NCBI GenBank assembly: GCA_963823555.1
Contig: CAWGMA010000003.1
Location: 608,001-672,000, forward strand
Direction of reading: 5' to 3'
Length of the DNA stretch: 64,000 nt
Source of the DNA: Candidatus Eiseniibacteriota bacterium
GTDB taxonomy: Bacteria > Eisenbacteria > RBG-16-71-46 > CAVPCR01
Below, one piece after another: positions 11,147 through 37,277 of this stretch. The translations under genes were made by a program, and so were the position numbers. The notes under the pieces are model-generated. The model did not search any database, had not been told where the DNA came from, and was given only the letters and a program-made list of their open reading frames with translations. Within the stretch, counting starts at the first letter, position 1. Each line of letters begins with the position of its first letter.

Positions 11147-11410
11147 ACGCGCCACGAAGTCCGGGAAAGGAGGATGGTGCCCGCTGCTTGAGACCCTTCG
11201 CCGAGACCCTGTGGGGAACCAATCCCATCCGGCAGGGGCCGGCCAGTAGCCGGGAAGCGAGTCTCTCGCGGTCGTCGGGTGGCCGGTCAACGGTCAAGGG
11301 GTCGAGCACGCTGGCTGTAGCGAGAGTGCGGAAGGGGAGCGGCGGGGTTTCCCGGACCCCTTCGGGAGGGGCCACGAGAAGGCCCCGCCGGGCGGTCGCA
11401 AAGAGAGAAT
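11147..11410 (+). repeat. Repeat B (second copy 14483-14656); 5' part resembles a degenerate group II intron domain I
   Basis: CCGGCAG..GGCCAG..GCCGGAAGCGAGTCT..GCG..GGCGGTCGCAAAGAGAGA is shared by both copies. The intron resemblance is recalled, not searched. Confidence 0.5.
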
Positions 11411-11720
11411 GGTTCGAACACCGTCCCACTTGGGGAGCCATCATCGGGAGTCGCGAACTGCAAGCGGCTCCGTGGTTAACGCGTGGCCCCGGTGGAGCGA
11501 TCCGCCGGGGTCGCGTCGTTGTGCGAGAAGTCGCACCGAGTTGCGGGTGCAAGCGCGGCGGGTGCGACTCTCTGTTCGCGAACGGTGCGAGTTGGCGGCC
11601 CGAGATGCGGCCGCGAAATGGGGCGATGGTACCCGAAACTCTCTCCTTCGTGGCGAGAGTCGGAGAATTGGTGAACGGGACCGCACTACTTGGTGGCCAA
11701 GTGGGACGGTATTCGAAATC
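11411..11720. repeat. Repeat X (~310 bp) bounded by inverted copies of the att-like core; copy 1
   Basis: Left GGTTCGAACACCGTCCCACTTGG, right CCAAGTGGGACGGTATTCGAAATC; homologous to 27109-27418. Confidence 0.75.
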
Positions 11721-11791
11721 CTCGGCCGGTGGTAAACTAGTTGCGTCCTCCCCATCTTGGCGTACTTACTCCTGACCCGAGGAGGCCCGCC

Positions 11792-11920
11792 GTGCGCTGC
11801 TTTGCCTTGGCTATTGCCGCTTCGATCGCCATCGTGCTCAGCCAGGCTGCTGCTGCCCAGGAGCCGCCGATGGTGCAATTGACCTTCGGCCCTACGAACG
11901 ACCGGTATCCCGCTTCCATG
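11792..11920 (+). pseudogene. Possible 5' fragment of a secreted TolB/PD40-like protein
   Basis: GGAGG plus GTG, signal peptide, then VQLTFGPTNDRYPA; the frame degenerates afterwards. Confidence 0.3.
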
Positions 11921-12229
11921 ATGGCCTTTCATCATGGTTCACGGCGGGCCGTCTGTTCCGACTGCACGCCCTGACTATGTTGGCTGCGGCCACGAGGCTT
12001 CGAGAAGTGAAAGTCCTCCCCCTGAGCAGGTCAAGGCGAAGGGGGAGGCGTCCACATGCGCAGCCTACCCCAGCCGCCTCAAGCAAGCGTCGAATTACAC
12101 CGGCGCGCCGACGAACAACCGCGCTGAACGAGGACCGGATGGCCTGTGGAGACCGAGATCGAAGCTCCTATCTTGTCCATCGTACCATCGCACCACGGTC
12201 AAGTAGATGGATAAACCCGGGTTCAGGAA

Positions 12230-14191
12230 ATGACGAGATTACGGAAGCACGTCAAGACGTACGCTAACAACCCCAAACATGGGGCACCGGTGGCGCTTTT
12301 CGTACTGGCGCTCCTTGCTCGAGTGATCTATCTCTTGCAGTACAGGAGCAGTCCCTTTTTCGAGTTCCCCATCATTGACAGCGCCACCTATGATCGTATG
12401 GCGTGGGATTACGCGCAGGGAAGGCCGCTATGGAAGGGCGCGTTCTGGCAACCACCGCTGTACCCATGGTTTCTAGGATTACTCTACAACATTCTCGGCC
12501 ACTCGCTGTTCGGCGTCCGTGTGATACAGGCGCTCCTTAGTTCGGTGTCCTGCATTCTGCTCTATGGCATTGGGCGCAACGTCTTTTCCCGGCGGGTTGG
12601 TATCATGGCGGGGGCTATCATGGCTGTCAATGGCACCTTGATCTACTTCGATGGCGAGCTCTTACCAGCAAGCCTCTACGTATTCCTACTTCTCTGTGGC
12701 CTTGTTGCGCTCCTACACGCTTCCAGCACCAAGGTGAATGAGTGGATGTGGAGATTAGCAGCCGGCCTGATTCTGGGTCTAGCCGCCCTGACTCGCTCAG
12801 ATGTGATGCTGTTCCTTTGTCTCGGGGCGGCATGGGCATGGTCGATGGCTCGTGGGCGGTGGCATGAACGACTCGCCTCTCCGGCCTTTCTTGTGGTTGG
12901 CGCCGCTATAGCGGTTTTGCCCGTAACCGTTCGAAACTACTATGCTTCAGACGACGTGGTTCTGGTCTCTTCCAACGGTGGCTTGAACTTCTATCTCGGG
13001 AACAACCCTAAGGCAGATAGTACCGTAGCAATACGTCCCGGTTTCGCATGGGAGAGTCTTGTGAATGAACCATTTCTGAAAGGCGGAATTGAGAAGCCGT
13101 CTGCCCGTTCGCGCTATTTCTTCCAGAAAGGATGGGTGTTCCTTCTGGAGAATCCCAGGGCGGGAGCTAGGCTGTATCTAGAGAAAGCTGCTCGCTTCTG
13201 GAATTCACTTGAAATCGGGAGAAATCGAGATGTGTACAGCACAAGGGGAAATTCTCGGTTGCTATCTATCCTCCTATGGCGCGTTGGTCCCTTTGGGTTT
13301 CCATTTGGACTCCTTGTGCCACTTGCTTGCGTCGGTGTTATGACATGTGTCCCGCTCAGTCGTGGTGCGGTGTTGTTGGTTGTGTTCGTCGCCAGCTACA
13401 TGGTCGTCGTGGTGGCGTTTTTTGTTGCCTCGCGCTACCGGCTTCCGATATTGCCGATTATGGGTATTTTTGCGGCGCAGTACGTCAGTTGGCTAGCGAG
13501 ACAATTGTCGCATCGGCGTTTGCGACCGGCCATTCTGTCCGTTGCGCTCTTTGCATTGGTTGCCGTGGGTGTAAGTCCAGGTCTTCCAGCGATCGTTGAG
13601 AGCTACGGGGGCGAGGAAGACCGATATCTAGGGGTGTATTACGTAGACAGAGGTCGATACAAGGAGGCGGAGGCAGCTTATCGCCGGGCGCTCGCGGTCA
13701 CACCGGACTATCCGGAGGCGCACTCGGAGCTCGGGCAACTGCTCCTTGTTCAAGCCCGTAGTCGGGAGGCTCTCTATCACCTTAAGAGGGCGAACGAATT
13801 GTGTGGTTTCTCGGAGAGGACTCATTACTTGCTTGGGATCGGCTTGAGAGCGTCAGGAGACTCAGTAGAGGCAGAAAGGGTGTTTCGCAAGGCAATCAGT
13901 ATTGCACCGTACGGACCGGCTCATCGAGAGCTAGGAGTGCTGCTTCTAGAGCAGGGGCGAATAGCGGAGGCGGAGGGGCTTCTCCTGGAGGCCGTGCGGT
14001 GCGATCCATCCGACCTCGATGCATGGTACAAACTCGGGCAGTGCTACTTCCTACTTGGGAGTTACGGAAAGGCCGAGGATGCTCTGCAGGGAGCACTTAG
14101 GCTGGCCCCCGGTGACGCAGAGATCAGGGAGAAAATCAGGAGCCTTCAGATCTTAAGAGGCTCTTCCGGGAGTCGAGTGGGTGATTTGTAA
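12230..14191 (+). CDS. GT-C (PMT/GT39-like) glycosyltransferase with C-terminal TPR repeats
   Basis: DSATYD, WQPPLYPWFL, multiple TM helices, RYRLPILP, TPRs (EAEAAYRRALAVTPDYPEAH). Confidence 0.85.
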   Translation: MTRLRKHVKTYANNPKHGAPVALFVLALLARVIYLLQYRSSPFFEFPIIDSATYDRMAWDYAQGRPLWKGAFWQPPLYPWFLGLLYNILGHSLFGVRVIQALLSSVSCILLYGIGRNVFSRRVGIMAGAIMAVNGTLIYFDGELLPASLYVFLLLCGLVALLHASSTKVNEWMWRLAAGLILGLAALTRSDVMLFLCLGAAWAWSMARGRWHERLASPAFLVVGAAIAVLPVTVRNYYASDDVVLVSSNGGLNFYLGNNPKADSTVAIRPGFAWESLVNEPFLKGGIEKPSARSRYFFQKGWVFLLENPRAGARLYLEKAARFWNSLEIGRNRDVYSTRGNSRLLSILLWRVGPFGFPFGLLVPLACVGVMTCVPLSRGAVLLVVFVASYMVVVVAFFVASRYRLPILPIMGIFAAQYVSWLARQLSHRRLRPAILSVALFALVAVGVSPGLPAIVESYGGEEDRYLGVYYVDRGRYKEAEAAYRRALAVTPDYPEAHSELGQLLLVQARSREALYHLKRANELCGFSERTHYLLGIGLRASGDSVEAERVFRKAISIAPYGPAHRELGVLLLEQGRIAEAEGLLLEAVRCDPSDLDAWYKLGQCYFLLGSYGKAEDALQGALRLAPGDAEIREKIRSLQILRGSSGSRVGDL

Positions 14192-14212
14192 CCGCCTCTT
14201 TACGCCCCGTTG

Positions 14213-14470
14213 TGTTGGTCCACCGAATCTCGGCCGCCTCGCCCCGGTGGCGGAACCTGATGCATGGGAGGATGTTATCTTGTGTGAATCGTCGGCCCCG
14301 CGAGGGAGTTACCCGGAGCGCAGGATGATGTCCTCTCACGTTTTGCGCCCTTGTCGCGCTGCCGAAAGGCTGGACACGGCACGTCCGCTCCGCCCTGCTC
14401 CAGGCCATGTTGTTGGTCGCTACGGCTTGGAACCTCGCCCGGGGCCAGGCGGTCACGAGCTGCCATCGAC
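14213..14470 (+). mobile_element. Family-Z left-end remnant
   Basis: TTGGTCCACCGAATCTCGG...GGATGTTATC...GCAGGATGATGTCC plus degenerate ORF start. Confidence 0.7.
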
Positions 14471-14656
14471 GGGAACGCCTCCCCGGCAGAGCCTGGCCAG
14501 CGGCCGGAAGCGAGTCTTGCGTGGCCATCGGGTAACCGGTGTCGGGGGTCAGCCTGGTGGTGGGCAGCGAGAGGGCGGGTTCGGGGCTGCCTATCGCGGA
14601 CTCCCTTGGCAAAGGGGCCATAGGAAGGCTCGGCAGGGCGGTCGCAAAGAGAGAGA

Positions 14657-14860
14657 GGTTCGCACACCGTCCAAGATGGGGAGCCAAATGTGGCTGTCTG
14701 CGAGGCGAGACGGGTACGGAAGTCCGTACCTGACCTCGACGGTCAGACGGTCATGAACGAGCACCTTCTTCACCACTTGGTGGAGGAGGTGCTTCTTTTG
14801 GGGGGCCGGTCCCTCGGCCATGACCTCCTCGAACCTCTTGACGATCTGCTCCAGCTCCCG
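14657..14860 (-). pseudogene. Large serine recombinase C-terminal remnant reading through the att-like core
   Basis: [28 protein letters not shown]...HIWLPILDGVRT; near-identical to 30846-31088. Confidence 0.55.
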
Positions 14861-14861
14861 T

Positions 14862-15027
14862 CGGGGAAGAAGATGTCGCCGACGTTGAGCCCGACGATCT
14901 CTCCCAGCGGGAGGCCGGTGCCGAGGGCGAGGGAGAATATCGTGTGGTCACGGGGGCATGTGGCGCTCGCATCTAGCAACGCTCGCTGCTCGGCGGCGGT
15001 CAGGGTGGTAGGGGAGAGGTGGGGCAT
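14862..15027 (-). pseudogene. Tyrosine recombinase N-terminal fragment fused to the serine-recombinase tail
   Basis: [18 protein letters not shown]...[26 protein letters not shown]. Confidence 0.75.
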
Positions 15028-15101
15028 CGGCGGTGGTCCTCAGAGTCCAGGGTCAATGATGCCTCGGGGGGACGGCGGGTCAAGGCTGCACCGATAGGAG
15101 G

Positions 15102-15310
15102 TCACCTGGAGGGCAGGAGGCACCTGCTGCTCATCGCGCTGCGGGAGGCCGCGTGATCCTCACCACCTATCCGATCGAAGATCGGACGAGATCGCGGAAT
15201 CTGTTCGCCGCGCGGGCGACGAACGCCTAACGCGTATCTGCGACGACCCGGTTGTCGGGGCTGACCCGGGGAACTGCGTGTCGGAGCGGAGTCCTGAAAT
15301 CGATGGACTA
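15102..15310 (+). mobile_element. Family-Z right-end remnant
   Basis: HLEGRRHLLLIALREAA* then GAAATCGATGGAC. Confidence 0.65.
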
Positions 15311-15421
15311 CTACACCTGACCTGCCCGGCCCTCTCCTTACCAACCCCGTCGCGCTCAGAACACCCGGCTTCACCTGCGGCCGCGCTGTGTCAGCGGGCG
15401 GCCGCCGGGTGTATGCCGCTG

Positions 15422-15808
15422 CTAAGGCCGCCGTTTCCCTGCCAAGTGCCCCCCGACAACTCCGGAAGGCACGATGAGAACGAACGACACGATGCCGTAC
15501 CATCGGGGAAGGTCTTCGCTCAGGCCCGCGAATTCGGCGATGAGGCCGATGAACAGTGCCCCGAGACCGACAGCCGCCCCGTGCCGCGCCTGCTGTGTTT
15601 CGACCAGACGGCCGGCAACGAAACCGCCGAGTGCCACGAGAGCCAAGCCGACGACTTCGGCGGCAATGAGCGCGCCCATGGTGTTCGGCGTCGCCGCCGC
15701 CGCGTCAGGTCCCTTCGTCACGACGATCAGGGCAGCGTACAGCACCCCAACGAGGATGCTGCCGACGGTATCGACCAGCAAACCCACCACAATCGGCCAG
15801 GCTTTCAA
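15422..15808 (-). CDS. Small 4-TM membrane protein
   Basis: GGGGAG RBS plus TTG start; hydrophobic helices, GGFVAGRL...HGAAVG. Confidence 0.7.
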   Translation of the reverse strand: MKAWPIVVGLLVDTVGSILVGVLYAALIVVTKGPDAAAATPNTMGALIAAEVVGLALVALGGFVAGRLVETQQARHGAAVGLGALFIGLIAEFAGLSEDLPRWYGIVSFVLIVPSGVVGGHLAGKRRP

Positions 15809-15871
15809 TCTCGCTCCCCCTTATCAAGGCCTGAGGTAAGAGACACTTCTACCCTCTATCATAGACCCAAC

Positions 15872-17444
15872 GGCAGAGTCTCGGTAGTTGTTGAATAAGG
15901 TCTGACGTTCTCTCCGGACCTCTTGAATCCTAGCGTTTCGAGCCGTTTGCTTCCATCTTCAGAATGCGGTCTGCGATTTCCTTCCTCCTGGCCGCGGTGA
16001 GCCCTGGATGGGCTGTTCGCCCGATGATCGCTGAGAACCGGCTTCACCAGAGGCCCCAGGATCAACGTTCTCGAGTCGGTCCGACCCGTAGTACCCCCCT
16101 CTTTCGGGGTGGCGGGGGCTCGGCGCGGATCCCGGGAGTCTCATGCGAGCTTCCTCTGCGCGCCGTCGATCATCTCCTCGAGCTTATGGTACCCGTCGAT
16201 CTTGCGCAGGCGGATCGCACCAGAAGCGATCAGACCGAACAGCAAGGTCAGCGCCGCCGCCTCGGTCGGGAACGACCCCTGGGTCTTGGTCCGCCGGCGG
16301 AACTCCTCGTTGATCCGCTCGATCAGGTTCGTCGTGCGCAGACTCTTCCACATCGCGGCGGGGAAGTTGTAGAAGGTCAGCAGCTCCCGCCCCGCCTCCT
16401 CGAGGCTGACGACGACCTCCGGCACCAGCGGCTGCCACTTCCGGCAGAACGCCGCGTAGGCCTTCTCGGCCGCCTCTCGGTTCTCGGCGTGGGTGATCGC
16501 CGCATAGTCGCGCTTGAGCTCGGCGTGGCAGTGCTTCGGCGCCTTGGCCAGCAGGTTCTCCAGCTTATGCCATGTGCACCTCTGCAGCTCGGCCTCCGGC
16601 CACGCCTCCCGCACCGCACGGATCAGGCCCGCGTTGCCGTCGAGCAGCACCAGCCGCGGCGCGACCAGGTTCAGCGCGACGAGTCCCTCGATCACTCCCG
16701 CCCACGCCTTCAAGCTCTCGCTCGGCGCCAGTCGCAGCTCGAGCAGCTCCTTCTCGCCGGTGGCCTTCACCCCGACCACCACCTGCACCGGCACCTTGAC
16801 CACCCGCCGGGCCAGCCGCACCGGCAGCCGCATCGCATCCAGGATCACGATCGCGTACGACTCGCGGCTCAGGTCGCGTCCTCGCCACATGGCGAACAGA
16901 TCCTGCAGCCGCTTGACCACCCGCGACACCGCACTCCGGGACATCGCCGTCCCCTCGACCAGCGGCTTCAGCGCCAGTCGGATCTTCCGCGTGTTCGTCC
17001 CCGTCAGGTAGCTCGTGACCAAGGCCGCGTCCAACCGCCGCGTGCGCCGCGCGTAGCGCCGGACGATGTCGCTCGTGAACTCCTGCGTCCCCGTCGTGGT
17101 CCGCAAGCGAGCGCGGGGCACCTCCACCTCCACCGGGCCGAACGAGGTCATCAACCGCCGCGGCGGCCGGCTGCCGTGCCGGTAGCCGGTGCGGGCCTCG
17201 GTGCGCTCCCGGAGGCTGGCCCCCAGGGCACCCTCCACTTCCTCGTCGAGGATGTCGACGATCATCTCCCGGACCCGGCCCCGGACGAGGGTCTCGAGAT
17301 CATGGAAATCCGCTGGCGGCACCAGCAACTGCGCAGTACGATCTTTCACGGCGTATTCCTCCGGTTAAGCCCATACTGGGCTTTGCTTTATGACACCCGG
17401 AGAATACGCCATTTCCCTTTCTCAACAAGTCCCGGGACGCTGCC
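15872..17444 (-). mobile_element. IS256-family element; transposase 16141-17349
   Basis: ILDAM, LDGNAGL, QRCTWHK, RTTNLIERINEE. TIRs GGCAGAGTCTCGGTAGTTGTTGA / GGCAGCGTCCCGGGACTTGTTGA. 8-bp TSD GACCCAAC (15864-15871, 17445-17452). Confidence 0.95.
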
Positions 17445-17466
17445 GACCCAACCGAGGAGGGACACT

Positions 17467-17531
17467 ATGGCCCATGACTCGCGTCCGGAGTCCGTGGTCC
17501 GCGAGATCCGCCGCAAGACCCGCCGCCGCGC
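17467..17531 (+). pseudogene. IS3-family OrfA N-terminal remnant (its left end at ~15831 is split off by the IS256)
   Basis: GAGGAGG plus MAHDSRPESVVREIRRKTRRR. Confidence 0.5.
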
Positions 17532-17717
17532 GGGTAACGAACTCACGCGGATCTGCGATGGCCTGGTTGTTGGCGCTGGCGGGGGAACCACGGATCCGGG
17601 CGGTGTGCTGAAGTCGGTGTACGAGCACAGGCGGGTCGAATCCCCTGATAGGACCGGCATTGTCTGGGAGAGGTGGAGTACAATCACCGGAGGAGGTATC
17701 GAGCGAGGGGGGCAACG

Positions 17718-18077
17718 ATGAACACCTTGGAATACCTGATCAATCTCGTCGTGTACGAGTTCTTGCTTATGCTCATCTTGAGCCCGATTCTGCTTGCAGC
17801 CATCGGTATCATGGAAGGGATCAAGTTGCTTGAACTCGGCGCGATCGCTGGTGTGGCTAGGGTGTTGTTGTTTCTCGTGGTGATAGTCGTGTTGCTGGGC
17901 ATGCCCTATGTGGCCCACAAGGCAGCGGGGAATCGCGTGCTGGCCAATATGTCGTTCATGAGTGCCCTCAGGAGCGCATGGGTTGACACGCGGGTCGAAC
18001 TTCAGTTCCTGCCAATCATCGGACAGTGGCTGTCGGGCCTACTGGGGGCACGGGACGACCGAGGCGAAGACTTCTAG
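17718..18077 (+). CDS. Small membrane protein
   Basis: MNTLEYLINLVVYEFLLMLIL... hydrophobic segments; RBS-like GAGGGG. Confidence 0.6.
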   Translation: MNTLEYLINLVVYEFLLMLILSPILLAAIGIMEGIKLLELGAIAGVARVLLFLVVIVVLLGMPYVAHKAAGNRVLANMSFMSALRSAWVDTRVELQFLPIIGQWLSGLLGARDDRGEDF

Positions 18078-18244
18078 AGGATGCCATGGCTCCTCTGACG
18101 ATTCGACTTGGCGGTGGGTGACCGCCCACCCTCGCTGAATCTTGGGAGTCGTGCGATGCTCCAGCCTGACAGCTCATACCACTGGTTCGATGCAGGTTCG
18201 TCTCTGTTCGGACGTAGCGCCGTGGCGTTGGGCCTCATAGTCGA

Positions 18245-19033
18245 TTGCCAGGCGCATCACCGGTATTGAGGATGGTAGGGAGGCGTTGGACCGTAGGAGG
18301 GACCTTGCACTGCACCGCCATCATCGTCACGCTGCTTACTATGGTCTGTGCTGCCGCGCCTACGTACCACACTCGTGGGCAGAGCACTCCCAATCCGTAT
18401 GTACTCGACGGACTTCGCAAAGCCCCGCACGAGTTCAGCATCGGTCGCCTCCCTCCCATAAGTGAGGTTGATGGATGCTGGCTTGACGACGACCAGTGGA
18501 ATGCCCTTCGTCGTGCGTTGATCGATAGCATCGCCTGCACCGATTGCAGCATGGGTTGGGCAGGCGATGTGCCTAGGCTAGTTGTCGTGCGACCGGTCGG
18601 TCCCGACGGGAGCAGTGCCTACTGGAATATCCAATTCGCCATGCTGTCAGCGGAAGGGGAACTGGAGGGCCTATGCCTAGGAGCATCCACCATGGGGTAT
18701 CGCGGGATTGGTCACCTGATCTACGATGACCTTGTGCCTTTCTTCCCGCTGGAGTGGTTCAAGGATCTTGATGGGGATGGCCTGAATGAGCTTATTCTCT
18801 GGGACAGTGTTCTAACAGTCGAGGAGCTACTATCAACAAATGCCGACTACGCCCTGGTCCCCCGAATCTACCAGCTGCGAGGCAACAAGTTGATAGAGAA
18901 GGCATCGCTCGGGCGGCTCCTCTATCAACAGGTTGCCGCCGTCTATGACGGCCTCGGTCGAGACACCTGGCTTCCGCCGGGTATCGCAGCTGCCATTCGG
19001 GTCTATCTCGCGGAGTCAACTGAGCAGCGGTGA
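18245..19033 (+). CDS. Hypothetical exported protein (start may be 18272)
   Basis: Hydrophobic N-region; DLDGDGLNEL Ca-binding-like motif; non-shadow composition. Confidence 0.55.
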   Translation: MPGASPVLRMVGRRWTVGGTLHCTAIIVTLLTMVCAAAPTYHTRGQSTPNPYVLDGLRKAPHEFSIGRLPPISEVDGCWLDDDQWNALRRALIDSIACTDCSMGWAGDVPRLVVVRPVGPDGSSAYWNIQFAMLSAEGELEGLCLGASTMGYRGIGHLIYDDLVPFFPLEWFKDLDGDGLNELILWDSVLTVEELLSTNADYALVPRIYQLRGNKLIEKASLGRLLYQQVAAVYDGLGRDTWLPPGIAAAIRVYLAESTEQR

Positions 19034-21685: not shown

Positions 21686-21784
21686 TCACCTTGCAGCGCT
21701 GCCGCACTGCATTCTGACGCCTCGGGGGCCCTTTGGCCTCCGGTTTGGGCATGGCTCATAACGGCTCATAAGAGGAGTCATGAC

Positions 21785-23284
21785 ATGGAAGCGCATGCGG
21801 CGAGGGGACCGAAGGCCCGGTGGATGTGGGCCGGCATCGGCCTTGTCCTGATTGCCGGCGCGCGGACGGAGGGAGCAACGCGGCGAGTGCCGGCGGACTT
21901 CCCGACCATCCAGCTTGCCATCGATGCGTCCGAAACGTCCGGTGATACGGTGCTCGTGAGCCCGGGGACCTACGTCGAGAACATCGAGATCCTACACAAG
22001 GACATCGTGCTCCTGAGTGCGGAAGGTCCCGAGATAACCATCATTGACGGCAGCCAGCCGTCAAACCCTGACACGGCATCTGTTGCATTCCTGCTCGGCG
22101 TCGGAATTGGAGGGAAGACCGAGGGCTTCACCATGCGGGGAGGGGCAGGCGCAATCGGTGTTATCTCAGGAGTGGGCACCGGAGGCGGTGGCATCTGCAT
22201 TGTCGATTCCATCGATGAAGGCCCGACGATCCAGGGCAACTGGATTCTCCACAACATGGCCACTCGTGGTGGCGGCGTGCTTGTTGCGGGCGCAGCTCGC
22301 GTCCTTGGCAACCGCATCGCATTCAACACGGCAGAAGACGGAGGGGGCGGCATTGGGATCTTTGAATCGGGTCTTCCAACTAGTACGCCGCGCCGATTGA
22401 TTGCCGACAATGAGATCTTCTTGAATCAAGCATCCAGCGGAGGTGGGATCGCCTATGTTCCCTTCAACGGAGGCGCCGGGTTCGATGGGGTCGACATCCT
22501 GGGCAATGTGGTGGCCTGCAATCAAGCGGTAAGCCAAGGGGGTGGAATGCGGGTATCAGGCCACCCGGGGAGCACGCGTATCGAGGGGAACACGATTTTC
22601 GGGAACTGGAGCCAGCAGCTAGGGGGCGCGATGTACCTCTGGGTGCTGTCCGGCAACCAGCTCGAGGTCCAAGGCAACGTGGTGGTCTACAATCTCGGCG
22701 GAAACGCCGTGGACTGCTCTGATCTCCCCGGCCCGCAACCGATGTTCACTTGTAACGACATCTTCGGCAACCAGCCGACGAACTCGGTCGGTGAGGTGTG
22801 CGGGGAGGTGCTGGGATTAAACAACAACTTCAGTCTCGACCCCGCGTTCGGCAGTGCCGACTGCGCCCCGACAGAACCCTACCATTTCTGCCTTCTTTCG
22901 GGATCGCCACTGCTACCCGAGAACTCGCCTCCGGGCTGCGGGCTGATCGGAGCGCGGGGGGCGTGCGCATGGGTCGGGATCGAAGTGTCCGAGCCGACTC
23001 CTCGTGCGGATCCGGCGGTGCTCCCAGCCCAGCCCAACCCCTTTGCCGAGCGGACGGCGATGCCGATCGATCTCCCTGAGGCAGCCGAAATCCGGGTTCA
23101 GATCGTGAACGCCCGCGGCGCTGCGGTCATCGAGCTGACGCCGGGTCGTTTTCCGGCAGGGGAGCATCGCGTTACCTGGGACGGACGTGACGCGCGCGGT
23201 CGCCGGTGTCCGGCAGGTGTCTACTTCGCGAGGATGCAGGCGGGAGAGCGGCAGTTCCAGAGCCGGCTTCTGCTGCTGCGTTGA
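21785..23284 (+). CDS. Secreted beta-helix protein with FlgD-like C-terminal domain (module 1)
   Basis: VPADFPTIQLAID, GGGI repeats, PNPF...WDGRD...AGVYFARM. Confidence 0.87.
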   Translation: MEAHAARGPKARWMWAGIGLVLIAGARTEGATRRVPADFPTIQLAIDASETSGDTVLVSPGTYVENIEILHKDIVLLSAEGPEITIIDGSQPSNPDTASVAFLLGVGIGGKTEGFTMRGGAGAIGVISGVGTGGGGICIVDSIDEGPTIQGNWILHNMATRGGGVLVAGAARVLGNRIAFNTAEDGGGGIGIFESGLPTSTPRRLIADNEIFLNQASSGGGIAYVPFNGGAGFDGVDILGNVVACNQAVSQGGGMRVSGHPGSTRIEGNTIFGNWSQQLGGAMYLWVLSGNQLEVQGNVVVYNLGGNAVDCSDLPGPQPMFTCNDIFGNQPTNSVGEVCGEVLGLNNNFSLDPAFGSADCAPTEPYHFCLLSGSPLLPENSPPGCGLIGARGACAWVGIEVSEPTPRADPAVLPAQPNPFAERTAMPIDLPEAAEIRVQIVNARGAAVIELTPGRFPAGEHRVTWDGRDARGRRCPAGVYFARMQAGERQFQSRLLLLR

Positions 23285-23315
23285 CCGCGTGGCCGGGGCC
23301 GCGTACTGCTATATC

Positions 23316-24215: not shown

Positions 24216-24481
24216 AGCTTGACAGCCTCGATGAACAGGTATCAAATCGTATCGGCGGTCTCCCGGCTAGGGAAGCCCCTTCGAACCGACCACGTGGCTG
24301 TGCCCACAGCGGTTCACCCGCCCTGGACGCTCCAGCGGCCTGTTCGTTGAGCCCCTACCGGGCGATCCATGGAATCGTCGTGGCGCGGAGGGAGATCCCC
24401 GGTCACGAAGAGCAGGCAGGGTAGAGTTCATTACTATTCCTAGGCTTGCCGGGATCAGATTGAATCATGGAGGGTGCTCTA

Positions 24482-24721
24482 ATGAAGACGACCGCTTTAG
24501 CCGTCATTCTCGTCTCTGCTGTCGCCGTTGCCACCGCTGTGGCTCCCGATCTTGCTTGGGCTCAGCCCGAATGCACCGAAGTCTGGTTTCAGTTGGAGGA
24601 CCCGCTGCATGACCCCCCATGCACCTGCACGATTGTTGCTACCGAGAGCATCCTGTCAGGCGACTACCTGATCCAGGAGGTCGATGGCGCTTGCTTCATG
24701 GTATGTCAACCTTGTCCATAG
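24482..24721 (+). CDS. Small secreted Cys-rich peptide (module 2)
   Basis: GGAGG RBS; signal peptide, AQPEC...DPPC...SILSGDY...CFMVCQPCP. Confidence 0.8.
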   Translation: MKTTALAVILVSAVAVATAVAPDLAWAQPECTEVWFQLEDPLHDPPCTCTIVATESILSGDYLIQEVDGACFMVCQPCP

Positions 24722-24730
24722 TCTAACGTC

Positions 24731-27070
24731 ATGAGTGCATTAACACACGGCCGGGCACTTCACCGCTGGCAAGCCACCAGAGCAGGTTCCCCTTGGCGCC
24801 ACGGCTGGGGACTTGCTCTTGCTCTGGCGTTGGCGTCCACTCCCAGCGCCGCCCTGACCATTCTGGTTCCTGGGAATGCCCCGACGATCCAGGGGGGAAT
24901 CGATCTTGCCGCCCCAGGCGACACCGTCGTTGTTGCCGCGGGTATCTACACAGGTGCTGGCAACCGTAGCCTCAACTTCTCCGGCAAGGCGTTGGTACTG
25001 CGGTCGGCGGCTGGACCAGCAGCCACCACCATCGATTGCCAGAACCTTGCTCGGGGCTTCGTGTTTGAAACAGCGGAGACGCCCCTCACAATCGTTCAGG
25101 GCTTCACGATTCGGAACGGTCTCGCAGCACTTGATTATGGCGGGGGCATGATCATGTCCGGCTCATCGCCTACCATTCGCGACTGCGTCATAACGAATAG
25201 CCATGCCAACAGTGGTGGTGCTCTCTTTCTCAGCCAAGCGTCACCGCAGCTCGAGGGATGCACGCTCTCGGCCAACAGCGCCGACAACTGGGGCGGGGCC
25301 ATCTATTGCGAGAGCTCCTCTCATCTCACCTTCACTGACTGTGTCGTCGCTGACAACTCCTCGGCGATGGGCGCCGGCATCTACGCGCTTGCCGGCACGG
25401 AACTCGCGATCAGTCGCTGTAGCTTCATGCGGAACATCCCGGTGAATCTCGCTGGAGGTATTTTCGCCCAGGGTGCCACGGTTGGCATCAGGGGTTCCAG
25501 CTTTAGCGCAAACGAAGGCAAGTATGGAGGTGGCATCTACGGCATCGACGGATGCTCAGTCACCGTGGATAGTTGCTCCTTTTCAATGAATGTCGCGGAC
25601 TTCGCCGGTGGTGGATTGTACACAGACCAATCGTCTCTGTCTCTGGCCGGGTGTACATTCCAGGGCAATCGAACCACGACGGAGGCCCCTCCAGGCATCA
25701 ACGGGGGAGGGGCCGGTCTTCACGCCGAGACCTTTGCCTTGCCCACTGCTGTCTTCTCGATGTCAGACTGCGTGTTCACGGATAATGAGACCTTCGGTGC
25801 CGGTGCCGATGGGGGAGGTGCGTTCGTCAAATTCGGTCAGACCCCGCGGATGACAGTGGAGCGCTGTGTCTTTTCGGAGAATCATGCGGATCGATATGGC
25901 GGAGGTGCGCGCGTATTTGGCGCTCCATACACGATTCGGGACTGCGCATTCAGCGGCAACACGGCTGGCAATGATGGGGGTGGGCTCGAGGCCAGCGGGG
26001 GGGTGGGTCAGGAGTGTCTCATAGTCGACTGCGTGATCACCAACAATCACAGTGGTACACGGGGGGGCGGGCTAGAACCCGGTGCCGGCAGTGGGTCGCT
26101 GACAATCTCCGGGTGCACCATTGCAGAGAATACCGCGGCGATTGAGGGCGGAGGAATCCGGTATCTTGTCTCCCCTACCGTCACTTCCTCACCAACGTTG
26201 TTGATCGAGAGCTGTCAGTTTACCCGGAACAGCGCTGGCCAGGGGGGCGGTGTCTACGTGCGGACCGGTTCGCCGTATGGTACTGGGGACACGAGGATCA
26301 CCAATTGCCTGTTTGATCGGAATGCGGCCACGATGGGCGGTGGGATCGCTGTCATGCCGCATCAGGGTAACGGTGCCGCTAGCATTGAAGGCTGCACATT
26401 GGTCAACGGTGCTTCGCCGGACGGGGGAGGGCTCAAGGTCGGCTCACTCTATGGGACATGGGGGAGCCGGACGGTCAGCGTCGAGGTCGCAAACTCGATC
26501 ATCGCATTTGGCGAAGCCGGGGTGGCAGTGAGTGTCGATACGCTGAGTACGGCTGTGCTGTCTTGCACGGACATCTTCGGCAATGCGGGCGGCGATTGGA
26601 CCGGACGGATCGCCGACCAACTTGGGATCAACGGTTGCTTCTCGGCGGACCCGCTCTTCTGCAATGCGGTGGCTGGAGATTACACACTGGCGGAAACCTC
26701 GCCCTGCGCCCCCGCGCATTCGCCGGTAGGGTGCGGGCTGATCGGGGCTCACCCGGTAGCGTGTGCGGCACCGATCGGGGTGGCGGATGAGGGAGCGCCG
26801 AGGATTGGCCCGCTCCTGCGTGTGCTGCCGAACCCGCTGCGGGGGGCGGGGACGATCGAGTGGATGGGAGCAGGGGTCGCGTCTGAGTTGCGGCTCTACG
26901 ACGCCGCAGGCCGACTGGTGGCGAGGCAGAGGGGTGAGGGCAGCCGCGGCCGGATGTCGTGGAGCGACCTGACCAGAGGCGGTGATGTGGCTTCAGGGGT
27001 GTACTTTCTGGAGTTGGGGTCGGACGGTGGAGGAGTGGCTGCTCGGTCGCGGCTCGTGGTGATTAGGTAG
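24731..27070 (+). CDS. Secreted beta-helix protein with constant FlgD-like C-terminus (module 2)
   Basis: PTIQGGID, GGAI/FxxN repeats, SGVYFLELG. Confidence 0.9.
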   Translation: MSALTHGRALHRWQATRAGSPWRHGWGLALALALASTPSAALTILVPGNAPTIQGGIDLAAPGDTVVVAAGIYTGAGNRSLNFSGKALVLRSAAGPAATTIDCQNLARGFVFETAETPLTIVQGFTIRNGLAALDYGGGMIMSGSSPTIRDCVITNSHANSGGALFLSQASPQLEGCTLSANSADNWGGAIYCESSSHLTFTDCVVADNSSAMGAGIYALAGTELAISRCSFMRNIPVNLAGGIFAQGATVGIRGSSFSANEGKYGGGIYGIDGCSVTVDSCSFSMNVADFAGGGLYTDQSSLSLAGCTFQGNRTTTEAPPGINGGGAGLHAETFALPTAVFSMSDCVFTDNETFGAGADGGGAFVKFGQTPRMTVERCVFSENHADRYGGGARVFGAPYTIRDCAFSGNTAGNDGGGLEASGGVGQECLIVDCVITNNHSGTRGGGLEPGAGSGSLTISGCTIAENTAAIEGGGIRYLVSPTVTSSPTLLIESCQFTRNSAGQGGGVYVRTGSPYGTGDTRITNCLFDRNAATMGGGIAVMPHQGNGAASIEGCTLVNGASPDGGGLKVGSLYGTWGSRTVSVEVANSIIAFGEAGVAVSVDTLSTAVLSCTDIFGNAGGDWTGRIADQLGINGCFSADPLFCNAVAGDYTLAETSPCAPAHSPVGCGLIGAHPVACAAPIGVADEGAPRIGPLLRVLPNPLRGAGTIEWMGAGVASELRLYDAAGRLVARQRGEGSRGRMSWSDLTRGGDVASGVYFLELGSDGGGVAARSRLVVIR

Positions 27071-27108
27071 GGGGGCGAGCGCCGGGGGCCGCGGCAGAGA
27101 CGGAGAGT

Positions 27109-27418
27109 GGTTCGCATACCGTCCCATTTGGGGAGCCATCGTGCGGAGTCGCGAACTGCAAGCGGCTCCGTGGTTGACAGGAGACCCCGACGGAGAGATC
27201 CGCCGGGGTCTCGTTCTTATGCGAGAAATGGCACCGAGTTGCGGGTGCAAGCGCGGCGGGTGCGACTCTCTGTTTGCGAACCGGGGGAGTTGGCGGCCCG
27301 AGGTGGCGTCGCGAAATGGGCGGTTGGCGGGCGAAACTCTCTCTTCCACGGCGAGAGTCGGAGAACTGGTTAACAGGTGTGGCCTACTTGGGGGGCCAAG
27401 TAGGACGGGTTTCGAGAA
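27109..27418. repeat. Repeat X copy 2, starting with the att-like core
   Basis: GGTTCGCATACCGTCCCATTTGGGGAGCCA...CCAAGTAGGACGGGTTTCGA. Confidence 0.75.
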
Positions 27419-27692
27419 CGCTTGGTCCGGTGCTCGTGACGCTGCGCACATCGCATAATCGCGGCAAGGCGTCTTGCACCTTCACGGCGACCCAGGAATC
27501 TACAAAGAGAATTGTAGCCATTCAGCGTCGCGCGGACTTGTTCACGCTACTGGCGCGGCGTAACGTTGAAGGCGTGGGAACCTGGGCAGGCCGCCTAGGA
27601 CAAGACCCAGTCCCGGCACGTGGGAGCAGCGACTCGGAGGATTCCAATGATATCCCGGCGACTTTTCGGCGATATTGGCCGCGTGGCGATCC

Positions 27693-27847
27693 CGTAGTGT
27701 CCGAAAAGTCGATCGTGCTGCCAGGACGCCAGTTACGGTGCATCTGGTAGCATCGTCGGATGCTTGATGCCATCCGCTTTCGCTTCTTCCTGGTCCCTCA
27801 GCACACCATCATCCCCCTCAGCCTCTCGAACATCCCCTCGTCCGACG
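27693..27847. mobile_element. IS481 left end fused to tyrosine recombinase 3' end
   Basis: Same chimeric junction (CTTCCTGGYCCCTCAGCACACCAT) as at 23364-23530. Confidence 0.7.
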
Positions 27848-27953
27848 GATGGATCGAAGCTGCAACGGGCGTTCCAGATTCCGCGTTCATGTTGCATTCG
27901 AGTTTCAACTTCACCTTTCGGCAGATCGGTTTCCTACAAGGCCGGATTTCTGC

Positions 27954-28120
27954 TTGCCAGGGTGTGAAGCGAGGAGCATCCTTGAACTCGGTTCCCCGGC
28001 TCGGACCGCGAGCCGGGCCCCAGGCCAGACCTCACCGCCCGGCGACCCCACGCGGGTCCCGGCGCCAAGCCGCCCGACGATGAGGCCCGACGAGCAAGGA
28101 GTTTCAGCGGGAGGTGGGTT
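27954..28120 (+). promoter_or_regulatory. Conserved promoter plus structured leader, copy 2
   Basis: TTGCCA-N17-CATCCT; CCGGCTC..GAGCCGG hairpin; AGGCCAGACCTCACCGCC core. Confidence 0.72.
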
Positions 28121-28507
28121 GTGAAGGCAAGTGTTCTCTTCGTGATGCTCGTGACAATGGTGGGACTGAGCTACGGGGTGTGCGCGGCGCAACCCGATTG
28201 TACGAACGTCTACCTGAAGATCTACGATCCAGTAAGCGATCCACCGTGTGGGGACCAATCCGGCGTGACCACGGGTTGGTTCATCCACGTGACTTCGTCG
28301 CCGTCCTCAGTCAATGGTGGGACGTGCTCAACGTTCTCGCTCAACCAGCTCTACGCCGACGTTGACTTCTTTAACACTCTGGGCTGCGGCACGCAGCATG
28401 TCTTTACCTGTGACATCGCAGCGAGCTCAAGCATCCTTTCCGGATACTACGAGCTTGATGACCTGGGTGATGGCTGTTTCCGGGTGTGTGAGACATGCAC
28501 CCCGTAA
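28121..28507 (+). CDS. Small secreted Cys-rich peptide (module 3)
   Basis: GGAGG plus GTG; signal peptide; ends CFRVCETCTP. Confidence 0.82.
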   Translation: MKASVLFVMLVTMVGLSYGVCAAQPDCTNVYLKIYDPVSDPPCGDQSGVTTGWFIHVTSSPSSVNGGTCSTFSLNQLYADVDFFNTLGCGTQHVFTCDIAASSSILSGYYELDDLGDGCFRVCETCTP

Positions 28508-28593
28508 GGAGGGGGAATCGGAGCCTCAAACTATGGGGACTGCGCGATTCGGTCCCCGGAGCTAGGGCGAGCGCATTGAGTCGTCAGGGACGA

Positions 28594-30795
28594 ATGGACT
28601 ACATGGGAGCTATACTAATCTCTGTCTTCCTGCTTCAAACGACAATCATCGCACCGGCTCTTGGAGGAATAGTTCATGTCCCTTCGGAGCAATCGACCAT
28701 TCAGGAGGGGATCAACACTGCCGCACTTGGTGATACCGTCCTCGTCGCTCCGGGAACCTACGTTGGCGCCCTGAACCGTAACCTCGATTTCGGTGGCAAG
28801 AACTTGGTCCTCCGATCCTCCGGGGGCGCTGCCATCACGATGATCGACTGCCAGAGCCAAGGTCGTGCGCTGCACTTCCACAGCGGCGAGTCGGTTGCTG
28901 CAATGGTGGAGGGTTTCACGATCCGAAACGGACTTGCTGCCGGCACCGTCGGCGGTGGGCTGTTGATCGAAGGTGGAGCGACGCCGACTATCAAAGAATG
29001 CCACCTGGAAGCGAATCACGCGATCACGGGTGGTGGGGTCTTTGTGGCTTCGGCGGTGACGTTGATCGACTGCGATCTCGAGGGAAACATCGCGGACAAC
29101 TGGGGCGGTGGGATCTACGCCGAGAGCGCCATACTGAGCGCTCGGGGCTGTGCGCTGACGCGGAACGGAGCTGGGATCGGTGCCGGGATGTATGTGACGC
29201 TCGGCACCACGGCAATGGTGTCCGACTGTAACTTCACGGAGAACTCGCCTGTGAACCGGGCAGGAGGGATTCACGGGTCGGGGTCGTCGTTCATCGTCCA
29301 GAGGTGCAGCTTTGTCGAGAACACGGGGCGGGAGGGAGCGGGAATGTGGCTTCTCGGAGGGACCGCGACCATCGATAGCTGCACTTTCATCATGAACATG
29401 GCGCAGTTCAGCGGAGGTGCAATACGGGCGGAGGGTGTAGAGGGCTTCCGGCTGACTGGGTCAATGCTGAGAGATAACACTGCGCTTGAGCATGAGATTG
29501 GCTACGACTTTACGGGCGGAGGGGGACTCGCCTATCGGAACAGAGGGGCGCTAAGCGTCGGACCCTACATAGCTGACAGCATATTCCTCGCAAATCGGGC
29601 CCTTGGACTGCCTGCGATTGGAGTTGGAGGATACGGTGGTGGCATGCGGATTGCCAGCGGATCGGGCGACAGCTTGCTTGTGGAGCGCTGCCAGTTCATC
29701 GGCAATCATGCCGACGACGTTGGGGGAGGGGCGGACGCTCCCGGAGTCTATCGGAGCTGCATTTTCGAGGGGAATAGCGCCAACGCCTGCGGAGGCTTGA
29801 GTGGCGGGCTCGAGCTGAGCGACTGCCGATTCACGGACAATCATGCGCTCACTGTGGGTGGAGCGTGCATACCGAGCCGTGGCATCATCATTCGCTGTGA
29901 GTTTTCTGGCAATTCTGCGAGTCAAAACGGAGGGGCTTTGCGGTGGGTGTATTTCAGCCCTCTATTCATTGAGGACTCGCGATTCGCGGACAACTATGCG
30001 AACCAGGGGGGCGGCGTCTTCATGTACAACGTGGATCCGGCCTCGATTACGGGATCTACATTCGAAGGCAACACGGCTACGACCGACGGCGGCGCCCTGA
30101 GCATCTGGGGGCCGGCATCTCCAGCATCTGTTACGCTGTCGGGCTGCACCCTGGTAGGAAACAGCTCACCGGTAGGAGGGGGCGTGTCGGTGAGGATACC
30201 GGTCAATATAGAGAACACGATCATCGCCTTCGGCATGGAGGGGGAAGCAGTGACCTGCATGGGCGACGGAGTCGGCGTGATGTCGTGCACTAATATCATC
30301 GGAAACGCCGGCGGCGATTGGACGGGATGCATCGCCGACCAACTCGGGATCGACGGGAACTTCTCGGCGGACCCGCTCTTCTGCAATGCGGTGGCTGGAG
30401 ACTACACGCTGGCGGAAACCTCGCCCTGCGCCCCCGCGCATTCCCCGGTAGGGTGCGGGCTGATCGGGGCTCACCCGGTGGCATGTGCTGAGCCGATCGG
30501 CGTGGCGGATGAAGGAGCACCAAGGATTGGCCCGCTCCTGCGCGTGTTGCCGAACCCGCTGCGGGGGACGGGGACGATTGAGTGGATGGGAGCAAGGGTC
30601 GCGCCTGAGTTGCGGCTTTACGACGCCGCGGGTCGACTGGTGGCGAGGCGGAGCGGCGAGGGGGGCGGTGGCCGGATGTCGTGGAGCGAGCTGACCAGAG
30701 GCGGTGATATGGCCTCAGGGGTGTACTTCTTGGAGCTCGGGACCGGCGGCGGAGGTGAGGTGGCTATTCGATCGCGGCTAGTGGTGATCAGGTAG
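28594..30795 (+). CDS. Secreted beta-helix protein with constant FlgD-like C-terminus (module 3)
   Basis: Paralog of 24731 and 31849; start uncertain (ORF opens at 28495). Confidence 0.9.
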   Translation: MDYMGAILISVFLLQTTIIAPALGGIVHVPSEQSTIQEGINTAALGDTVLVAPGTYVGALNRNLDFGGKNLVLRSSGGAAITMIDCQSQGRALHFHSGESVAAMVEGFTIRNGLAAGTVGGGLLIEGGATPTIKECHLEANHAITGGGVFVASAVTLIDCDLEGNIADNWGGGIYAESAILSARGCALTRNGAGIGAGMYVTLGTTAMVSDCNFTENSPVNRAGGIHGSGSSFIVQRCSFVENTGREGAGMWLLGGTATIDSCTFIMNMAQFSGGAIRAEGVEGFRLTGSMLRDNTALEHEIGYDFTGGGGLAYRNRGALSVGPYIADSIFLANRALGLPAIGVGGYGGGMRIASGSGDSLLVERCQFIGNHADDVGGGADAPGVYRSCIFEGNSANACGGLSGGLELSDCRFTDNHALTVGGACIPSRGIIIRCEFSGNSASQNGGALRWVYFSPLFIEDSRFADNYANQGGGVFMYNVDPASITGSTFEGNTATTDGGALSIWGPASPASVTLSGCTLVGNSSPVGGGVSVRIPVNIENTIIAFGMEGEAVTCMGDGVGVMSCTNIIGNAGGDWTGCIADQLGIDGNFSADPLFCNAVAGDYTLAETSPCAPAHSPVGCGLIGAHPVACAEPIGVADEGAPRIGPLLRVLPNPLRGTGTIEWMGARVAPELRLYDAAGRLVARRSGEGGGGRMSWSELTRGGDMASGVYFLELGTGGGGEVAIRSRLVVIR

Positions 30796-30845
30796 GCGGG
30801 CCGAGCACCGGAGGACGAGTAGAGGGCGCCACAGAGGCGGAGAGT

Positions 30846-31088
30846 GGTTCGCAAACAGTCCCACTTGGGGAGCCAAATGTGGCTGTCTGCGAGGCGAGAT
30901 GGGTACGGTAGTCCGTACCACACCTCGACCGTCAGGCGGTCATGAACGAGCACCTTCTTCACTACTTGGTGGAAGAGGTGCTTCTTTTGTGGGTTCGTTC
31001 CGGCGGCCATCACCTGCTCGAAGTCGTCGATGAGTGCGGCAACTCGCTCGCGGTCAAGTGCGGGCAGTTCGAGTTGCTCGACAGCCAT
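30846..31088 (-). pseudogene. Large serine recombinase C-terminal remnant with att-like core (30846-30875)
   Basis: [43 protein letters not shown]...HIWLPKWDCLRT. Confidence 0.55.
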
Positions 31089-31390
31089 GTGTTATCGATC
31101 AAGGGACACAGCTACCGGCTGCGGGAACGCACCCTGGCCACGACCCAGGCCCCTGCTCTCGCCCCGGCCTGAGCAGACTCGGAACCAGAAAGGAGGTCAG
31201 AACTTACCGTGATCAGCCCGGATCCTCAGCAGGGGTGGTCCACTTTTCGCCGTTCACCTTGGACCAGTTTTCAATGTTCGTTGACAATCGCTAGCTGAGC
31301 ACCGTCCCCGACCCCGAGGGGACATCGAACCCGACGATCAGGGGACATCTTAACCCGGTGATTCGGGGACATGCCGATCCGACGTTGACA
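31085..31390 (+). mobile_element. IS21-family remnants: istB C-terminus and two right ends
   Basis: HVLSIKGHSYRLRE*. Ends ...GTTGACA at 31286 and 31390; the second has three GGGGACAT internal repeats. Confidence 0.65.
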
Positions 31391-31771
31391 AGAGAAAGTG
31401 CTGCAGCGCATGCCCGTAGTGCCCGGTCGCCTCCAGACCGAATCGCACCTCGCTGCTGCCACTGGCAGCGCGCGCCAACTCGACCCGCTCCAACAGCTTG
31501 GCGAACCCCTCCCGGTCGTTGCTGAAGGAGAACGGCCGCTGAAAACGGCCGTCAGGAAGCCGGATCGCGGCCACGTGGCGTCGCTTTGCCACGTCGATGC
31601 CCACCACCAGCACACCGGACTTGATCGGAAGCCGACCGTTCGCTTTACTCGCCATGGGACTGCCTCCTCGTTGCTCGAGCCAAAGACCTTACGACCTTCG
31701 ACTCGGCAGCTTGGGACAGTCCTCCTACTTCTTCAAGACTGCCGTCTCCCCGCCTGTCCGCTTATAGCACT
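31391..31771 (-). mobile_element. IS110-family remnant: left non-coding end plus N-terminal DEDD transposase (ATG 31655)
   Basis: VVGIDVAKRRH, GLEATGHY. Truncated by an IS21 end; the left end abuts the att-like core. Confidence 0.8.
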
Positions 31772-31848
31772 CTCCCCAAGTGGGACGGTTTGCGAACCAT
31801 TCTCCGCCTCTGTGGCGATCTCTACTCGTCCTCCGCTACTCGGCCCGC

Positions 31849-37266: not shown

Positions 37267-37277
37267 GCTACTTCTAG

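Follow-up and report, generated by a model that had tools for sequence, protein, structure and literature searches.

The systems closest to the locus described here are the ssrA islands of Dehalococcoides (DsiB; PMC3146451), the composite islands and ccr-less cassettes of the staphylococcal cassette chromosome (SCC; CcrAB/CcrC; PMC13739063, 10.1101/336396), the tycheposons (10.1101/2020.12.28.424599), the Islander-type tRNA islands (PMC4383910), and the large serine recombinase (LSR) integrases of phages LI/A118, phiC31 and Bxb1 (PMC3783163). The locus lies in a window of 64,000 nucleotides from a Candidatus Eiseniibacteriota bacterium, which corresponds to C3:608001-672000 of genome G000 (four contigs, C1-C4). 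In this window, a short motif that ends like a tRNA gene is repeated five times and joins two types of left flank to two types of right flank. The four joins were probably produced by tandem accretion of LSR elements at a tRNA-Asn gene, and not by one reciprocal exchange.

The window resembles these systems in several respects. ssrA islands are arranged in tandem within about 100 kb behind a stable-RNA gene, are separated by short repeats of its 3' end, and carry an extra conserved upstream motif that is unmatched in the gene; many of them lack an integration module, and their cargo is paralogous (PMC3146451). SCC composite islands consist of cassettes that LSRs insert in tandem at the 3' terminus of a core gene, with internal attachment (att) sites, the recombinase gene inside the element, and units without a recombinase (PMC13739063). 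In tycheposon and Islander-type stacks, elements with a primase/helicase gather at a tRNA gene, newer elements displace older ones, and partial tRNA copies are left (10.1101/2020.12.28.424599; PMC4383910). The phage integrases have the same resolvase, recombinase and zinc-ribbon domains (PMC3783163). According to the 2014 Islander report, no serine integrase was known to use a tRNA gene as its target (PMC4383910), and the available part of PMC12884075 does not address serine integrases at tRNAs.

A site consists of an arm, here termed P, followed by GGGGAGCCA. Its left flank is of type A or B, and its right flank is X, which belongs to elements with an LSR gene linked to a DUF2924 gene, or Y, which is the tail of a second LSR family. 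The sites and their flanks are as follows.

11133..11410, forward strand: B, the long end that X-type elements have on their distal (P) side, as in the left flanks of P sites at metagenome loci L156 and L165
11411..11440, forward strand: site 1, P arm and GGGGAGCCA, a B-P|X junction 42.0 kb past the tRNA-Asn end
11441..11731, forward strand: X of site 1, the tRNA-proximal end (P'-type arm and strong hairpin) of DUF2924-LSR elements
14482..14656, forward strand: B-type end before site 2, after a remnant of a repeat found at copies of rve-type transposase genes
14657..14686, forward strand: site 2, a B-P|Y junction
27109..27138, forward strand: site 3, an A-P|X junction
27139..27431, forward strand: X copy that opens the 3737-bp unit between sites 3 and 4, 81% identical over 281 bp to the tRNA-adjacent X
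30846..30875, forward strand: site 4, an A-P|Y junction, bridged by a contig of run X2
31772..31798, reverse strand: site 5, an inverted A-P arm with CCA missing

A preliminary description of the window, made from its letters, had placed a core at 11411, 14657, 27109 and 30846 on the forward strand and at 31772-31798 on the reverse strand, and the motif matches at all five positions with 0-1 mismatches. The chance level was taken from 100 shuffles of the window, which gave a mean of 0.01 matches and a maximum of 1. The flank combinations of that description (B-X at 11411, B-Y at 14657, A-X at 27109 and A-Y at 30846) are all present. X measures about 280-296 bp instead of the proposed 310 bp, and the A-type and B-type left arms have 31-46 bp in common, reaching the crossover; the P arm is therefore common to both, and A differs from B only in what lies upstream of it. 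Site 5, also listed as a copy of the core, is present and inverted, lacks CCA, and is followed by an IS110 fragment, with neither X nor Y. By eye, the DNA after site 5 looks like an X arm without CCA.

Alignment of the sites, which had been proposed for mapping the crossover, placed the breakpoints of homology at the core, and they are not scattered. Right-arm homology extends over 296 bp at 82% between the X arms of sites 1 and 3 and over 152 bp at 89% between the Y arms, and left-arm homology extends over 575-682 bp at 83-90% among A arms and 207 bp at 72% between B arms. All right-arm homologies begin at the crossover, and all left-arm homologies end there. B, at about 310 bp including the core, is 77-84% identical to the left flanks at L156 and L165.

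A genome-wide search allowing up to 4 mismatches found nine copies in G000, namely the five of the window and C2:696600 (-), C2:706538 (+), C2:716491 (-) and C4:6849 (+). The copies at C2:716491 and C4:6849 both lie inside a 9.4-kb stretch that is 98.6% identical between the two contigs, and they were therefore taken as one event. This pair (C2:713925-723326 and C4:1-9414) is located near contig ends, contains a P|X site and beta-helix genes, and is a true duplication or strain variation. In a survey of 206 genomes of the phylum including G000, where kin are not independent, the P-arm pattern was found in 15 genomes (0 matches for the reversed control); it was also found in 22 metagenome stretches. 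Counts by locus (L) and by genome (G) were kept separate and not summed, because loci of the Y-tail search may overlap the genomes searched. By a crude rule of arm assignment, the 52 distinct P joins comprise 26 X, 4 Y and 22 other arms, and several of the latter are X-like by eye. A protein-coding constraint on the P arm was rejected. The arm contains an in-frame stop in several relatives (L086, L087, L099, L108 and L150), so the motif is kept as DNA and not as protein.

Read evidence was taken from the assembled contigs of four runs (X1, X2 and X5 among these), with word shares of 0.13-0.34 and with rare variants dropped. A short-read contig of run X2 covers 30673-31186, including site 4, with 0 differences, so the A-core-Y join at this site is not an assembly artefact. 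Among the matches listed, no bridging contig was found for the other sites.

The resemblance of the core to a tRNA 3' end, which the preliminary description had noted, was traced to a cognate gene. ARAGORN found no tRNA inside the window, and the target could be located only genome-wide. The single tRNA-Asn called in G000 (C3:577370-577444) precedes the window by 30.6 kb. Its last bases are GGGGAGCCA, and immediately behind them comes an X arm that is 86.5% identical over 282 bp to X of site 1. The identity between tRNA and motif is limited to these last 9 bp. GGTTCG is present in both and lies 5 bp further out from the end in the motif. When the GA of GGGGAGCCA is taken as the centre, GTTCG occupies 24-20 of the P arm, against 19-15 of the tRNA. 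The ZD (zinc-ribbon) motif of phage LSRs is at 16-24 in attP and 5 bp nearer the centre in attB (PMC3783163). Since the 5-bp shift is the same, the tRNA end corresponds to an attB-type arm and the motif to an attP-type (P) arm. Among the 77 GGGGAGCCA 9-mers of G000, GTTCG occurs at the P spacing in 8 and at the tRNA spacing in 1, which is tRNA-Asn itself. The four forward-strand sites have the same orientation as this gene, with spacings of 41996, 3246, 12452 and 3737 bp.

A mirrored motif at +20..24 with at most 1 mismatch was found in 21 of the 24 Y arms in which the core could be located (29 loci examined). These arms came from a protein search, and the count can therefore be regarded as a non-circular check on the att geometry. 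The position of the mirrored motif is kept although the Y tails enter the site in different reading frames, one at 14 loci and the other at 9. From the symmetry of the arms, the crossover is predicted at the GA of GGGGAGCCA, within the 9-bp shared block to which the sequence confines it. A central GA dinucleotide is also used by SCC (PMC13739063). LSR-like tails unlike X or Y abut tRNA-Asn or the P arm at L075 (G003), L149 and L162, suggesting that at least three LSR families use the site. At L054, a Y-family LSR tail adjoins tRNA-Arg(CCG) and not tRNA-Asn.

X is the end of an element family with its own recombinase. Behind tRNA-Asn|X in G000 lie, in order, a DUF2924 gene, an intact LSR gene of 526 amino acids (C3:579888-581468; PF00239, PF07508 and PF13408, which are the resolvase, recombinase and zinc-ribbon domains), and genes for a 157-amino-acid protein, a sigma70-region protein and a D5/NrS-1 primase-helicase. 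This LSR gene is internal to the element and does not read through the site. A second DUF2924-LSR copy follows the site at C2:706538 and is interrupted by tyrosine-recombinase genes.

The linkage of X to this LSR was also examined in relatives. Among 13 tRNA-Asn stretches (G000 and 12 relatives), tRNA|X is followed by the DUF2924-LSR in 6, G000 included. The other seven comprise one tRNA|Y, one third LSR-like tail, four X-like arms and one other arm. In 20 LSR-centred stretches picked from 47 LSR matches, a site lies upstream in 6 (5 tRNA-Asn|X and 1 P|X). Two contigs of G022 have an exact 127-bp overlap within the LSR; joined there, they form a single element of about 11.3 kb that begins at tRNA|X, includes the LSR and ends at a P|other join. 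The LSR (E<=1e-60) is present in 11 of the 15 genomes with the P arm versus 17 of the 191 others, among which kin are not independent.

X as native DNA downstream of the tRNA was considered and judged unlikely, because X is multi-copy, its copies are diverged (81-87%), and the DUF2924-LSR lies behind it in 6 of the 13 tRNA-Asn stretches. This judgement is weakened by the 4 of 13 stretches that have an X-like arm and no LSR within the DNA fetched. The first 100 nucleotides of X fold with a z score of -6.6, and the X hairpin region gives z scores of -3.7 to -6.6. This hairpin perhaps supplies the terminator of the tRNA gene. X as a known RNA was rejected, and no Rfam family matched 10800-32000.

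The tyrosine-recombinase genes that interrupt a DUF2924-LSR are clustered, and three more occur in a row on C4; the stretches concerned are C2:707745-710400 and C4:11775-14145. The arrangement resembles RIT elements. All types together, G000 has 14 tyrosine-recombinase matches.

Y belongs to a second LSR family. On the opposite strand, it encodes the last ~70 codons of an LSR, and the frame runs through the site.

14687..14869, reverse strand: Y at site 2, truncated 3' tail of a Y-family LSR gene read toward the site, 64% identical to residues 439-505 of the L037 LSR
30876..31080, reverse strand: second Y-family LSR tail, cut by an IS21-like end, 65% identical to residues 437-505 of the L037 LSR

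A reverse-strand serine recombinase gene that overlaps the site at its 3' end is likewise found in the ssrA islands (PMC3146451). The full-length Y-family protein at L037 has 512 amino acids with resolvase, recombinase and zinc-ribbon domains. The claim that an LSR frame runs through the att site holds for Y (64-65% identity to this protein), and the intact DUF2924-linked LSR differs in being internal. Of 29 Y-family loci, 12 have the tail directly next to a complete tRNA-Asn, and in 9 the match is preceded by an open frame of 440 codons or more; the closest Y-tail relative is 86% identical. In G000, Y is limited to the tails of sites 2 and 4 and to a further, more decayed piece at C3:673.1 kb. 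An intact Y-family LSR, including any ending in the WLPxxDxxRT motif that had been proposed as a search target, was not found in G000. In L052, L053 and L063, the open frame at the joint of Y tail and non-tRNA arm continues past the site into a conserved stretch, and the element circle may therefore encode a longer recombinase. By eye, the continuation in L052 contains a helix-turn-helix-like segment that resembles the small protein behind the DUF2924-LSR.

These data bear directly on how the four joins are read. The preliminary description took A, B, X and Y as four arms of one Y-type recombinase and their joins as attB, attP, attL and attR of one reciprocal exchange. This proposal has in its favour that all four joins exist and that Y is an LSR tail reading through the site, and it is nevertheless very improbable. 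Because the P arm is common to A and B, the attB spacing is found in neither, and the attB-type arm is the tRNA; the left arms to be contrasted are thus tRNA and P. X is tied to the DUF2924-linked LSR, which is only 29% identical to the Y-family LSR, and no intact Y-type LSR was found in G000.

Tandem accretion would proceed as follows. The X-type circle would carry an attP composed of the P arm, GGGGAGCCA and X, with the LSR gene 0.6-6 kb inside, behind the DUF2924 gene. Integration at the tRNA end would create tRNA|X as the near end, the GCCA of the tRNA being restored by the element, and the far end would be P joined to whatever had earlier followed the tRNA. Repeated arrivals would displace older elements and leave P|X joins, with the newest element nearest to the tRNA (tRNA|X ... 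P|X ... P|Y). An older resident of the Y family, whose gene end crosses the site, would account for P|Y. Through deletions and insertion sequence (IS) insertions, some elements would then have shrunk to X..P units that lack a recombinase and keep a single cargo gene, and such small units could be moved in trans by an intact LSR or along with their neighbours. IS21 and IS110 activity would have inverted and broken site 5. The four join types would thus follow from the order in which elements arrived and from the use of one site by two LSR families. Stacking of this kind requires attP x attL-type events, and hence the recombinases may have relaxed directionality.

Several results weigh against tandem accretion. 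Canonical LSRs do not recombine attP with attL, and phage LSRs are described as strictly directional and single-copy, unlike the stack in the window (PMC3783163); the same source records non-canonical attP x attP activity for A118 and CcrA/B. No site lies upstream in 14 of the 20 LSR-centred stretches, of which four end at contig ends and four, from G008, are more divergent. Of 40 X arms, 23 have the mirrored motif at +19, which is off symmetry by one base and also separates the X arm from the phage LSRs, and 11 have none; the window's own Y arms have 2 mismatches in it. Three separate sites on C2 and C4 have no tRNA-Asn nearby. The stretch from site 2 to site 3 starts with Y and ends with an X-type P arm, and therefore requires a deletion or shared use of arms. 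The native downstream arm (P|B') was not found in G000, and the right flank of L166 is without a match there. Alternative junctions and circles had been proposed as a target in reads; the contigs of the four runs, with rare variants dropped, contain no circles, empty sites or alternative joins at att sites, and confirm only the existing junction at site 4.

The A-type left flanks are connected with beta-helix surface-protein genes.

24731..27070, forward strand: secreted beta-helix protein (Pmp-like repeats) with a tail of the type IX secretion system (T9SS)/FlgD type; stop 38 nucleotides before site 3
28495..30795, forward strand: beta-helix paralog, cargo of the 3737-bp unit; the shared A module makes up its last 170 codons, starting at about 30283
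31849..34083, reverse strand: third beta-helix paralog, which also ends in the shared A module; its stop lies 50 nucleotides before site 5

With one more on C2, four beta-helix genes have their stops 38-50 nucleotides ahead of the P arm. In all 6 pairs, fourfold-degenerate differences amount to 0.63-0.74 in the first ~530 codons (saturation ~0.71-0.73) and fall in a sharp step to 0.16-0.28 in the last 170 codons (saturation 0.63). Four paralogs were picked as controls, and two (x2 and x4) were excluded owing to a wrong or partial frame; the two valid paralogs, which are not linked to the P arm, differ from the arm-linked genes at 0.55-0.67 in the 3' part. Since silent divergence is saturated at the 5' side and low at the 3' side, the 3' module and P arm were shared recently and the passengers are old. 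The arm-linked genes are therefore mosaics. The 3' module encodes a C-terminal domain with the T9SS/FlgD-type tail, near the TIGR04183 cut-off. Such mosaics would have arisen either by swapping of passengers onto the att-linked module or by homogenisation of the 3' ends through gene conversion, and the tract lengths of 575-682 bp fit homologous recombination and not LSR action for the A-module exchange. Beyond 66-79% matches to the first 230 bp of the module, the A module and P arm were not found in four closest genomes. A contig of run X1 joins 30354 to 32310 on opposite strands (side 31), between the 3' modules of two beta-helix genes; this joint could be an assembly chimera and was left out of the counts. 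A further full-length paralog at C1:982480-984654 (-), 42% identical to the site-4 gene, ends about 110 nucleotides from the 3' end of tRNA-Leu(GAG) and faces it.

The units between the sites and the IS remnants beside them include the following features.

12230..14191, forward strand: cargo of the 3246-bp unit, a TPR protein (Pfam TPR) with a weak glycosyltransferase-like N-terminus; NCBIfam matches below cut-off
31081..31286, forward strand: right end of an IS21-like element, with an istB-like tail and a terminal repeat; it is 100% identical over its 206 bp to C3:426599-426804
31350..31655, reverse strand: N-terminal fragment of an IS110 transposase (PF01548); its upstream DNA begins right after the GGGGAG of site 5

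The 3246-bp unit (sites 1-2) and the 3737-bp unit (sites 3-4) have no recombinase and one cargo gene each; local GC at the cargo of the former is 0.55-0.57. LSR-less units of 2970 bp with an AbiEi/AbiEii pair and of 2911 bp with an unannotated open reading frame (ORF) are present in relatives G028 and G057, respectively. C3:426599-426804 is the end of an element with a gene for a Mu-transposase C-terminal domain and an IstB-like ORF. A contig of run X5 matches 30793-31079 and then departs from the window sequence where the IS21-like end cuts the Y tail. Habitual targeting of the att site by IS110 was considered, and a search of the other 205 genomes of the phylum gave no match to the fragment at E<=1e-15.

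Units of this kind raise the idea of an integron-like system, in which the intact LSR excises, reorders and re-inserts X..P and Y..P cassettes while the 3' module captures beta-helix passengers. Integrons themselves depend on the tyrosine recombinase IntI and on attC hairpins; the sites here have LSR geometry. It would agree with the single-gene units, some 3-4 kb long, of G000, G028 and G057, with P sites spaced only 0.4-1.5 kb apart at metagenome loci L149, L162 and L170, with the retention of Y as an arm of only ~45 bp in G001, with the left-flank type of C2:696600, which is joined to X in G000 but to Y in G001, and with the mosaic genes. This is unlikely, since copies are 81-90% identical and the events are thus old, IS remnants occur throughout the units, gaps of 42 and 12 kb separate sites, and no cassette was seen in two different positions; joints at the sites are also missing from the contigs of the four runs, from which absence is not demonstrable. 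The fuller form of the idea, an active DUF2924-LSR cassette system at tRNA-Asn with arms of several families, one-gene units and a 170-codon secretion-tail platform for swapped beta-helix passengers, is likewise doubtful. As for the earlier proposal that surface-protein modules are moved or shuffled at the core, they were most likely placed by site-specific recombination, and ongoing shuffling is not seen in the contigs.

The IS content suggests another origin, namely passive copying of a few att scars by IS rearrangement and homologous recombination, with most joins not being LSR products. IS sequences are dense, and remnants of IS21 and IS110 lie at sites 4-5; a nearly identical stretch of 9.4 kb occurs on both C2 and C4, some sites lie away from the tRNA, and the A module is shared. 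This origin is quite improbable, as all arm homologies start or end at the crossover, the same P|X geometry recurs in the 15 genomes and 22 metagenome stretches, and X copies are 81-87% alike, as expected of separate arrivals. Core-exact P|X, P|Y and tRNA|X joins with unrelated cargo have also largely been met already in further genomes. Tandem accretion at tRNA-Asn is the reading retained for the comparisons below.

The stack differs from the described systems in both target and recombinases, and it therefore belongs to neither the ssrA islands nor SCC. Unlike in the ssrA islands (PMC3146451), the target is the acceptor end of tRNA-Asn and not the T-loop of tmRNA, the identity block is 9 and not 20 bp, and two LSR families are present, of which the dominant one is internal and DUF2924-linked, with beta-helix surface proteins as cargo. 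The tmRNA gene of G000 is on C1 with no P site near it, and the six-gene dsi module of that description (dsiB, dsiA, recF-like, parB, mom and polymerase-like) was not seen beside the X-type LSR of G000. Unlike SCC (PMC13739063), the stack targets tRNA-Asn and not rlmH, and contains no ccrAB pair and no mec; its X-type LSR scores 170 bits against a cut-off of 900 (CcrB), and 120 against 900 and 104 against 700, on the Ccr models. In tycheposon-type elements, unlike in the window, the integrase is mostly of the tyrosine type (910 of 937), and the tRNA fragments left behind are long (10.1101/2020.12.28.424599). A literature search, whose coverage left out most subscription journals, found no publication on a DUF2924-LSR/tRNA-Asn system; DUF2924 is mentioned a single time in each of three papers on Wolbachia.

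Other features of the surroundings were noted. Members of a repeat family associated with the 5' ends of rve-type transposase genes occur at 3743-4046, 14215-14511, 35412-35790, 49103-49424 and 53094-53290; this family has many short remnants and is similar to miniature inverted-repeat transposable elements. A low-GC block at 40487-46335 contains two related amidohydrolase genes, one of them split over two ORFs, and a DcaP-type porin gene. A larger low-GC island from about C3:575 kb to 705 kb is rich in secreted proteins with FlgD-Ig tails, and such proteins (subtilase-PKD, beta-helix and metallophosphoesterase) are encoded at 5560-9273, 21785-23284, 35827-37416 and 61443-63032.

These findings tie the unannotated family DUF2924 to a defined att site. 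They add the acceptor end of a tRNA to tmRNA and rlmH, the targets for which LSR island stacks have been published. To the known systems, the window adds the link between the DUF2924-LSR and X, two LSR families on one site, and mosaic surface genes. Because the two families are only 29% alike, cross-family att recognition and loss of directionality can be tested with short synthetic sites. The short, conserved landing site at tRNA-Asn may serve integration tools. The mosaic genes point to a route of surface diversification in this uncultured phylum, and if the doubtful reading of an active cassette system were true, the cell surface would be diversified by swapping beta-helix passengers on an att-linked module.

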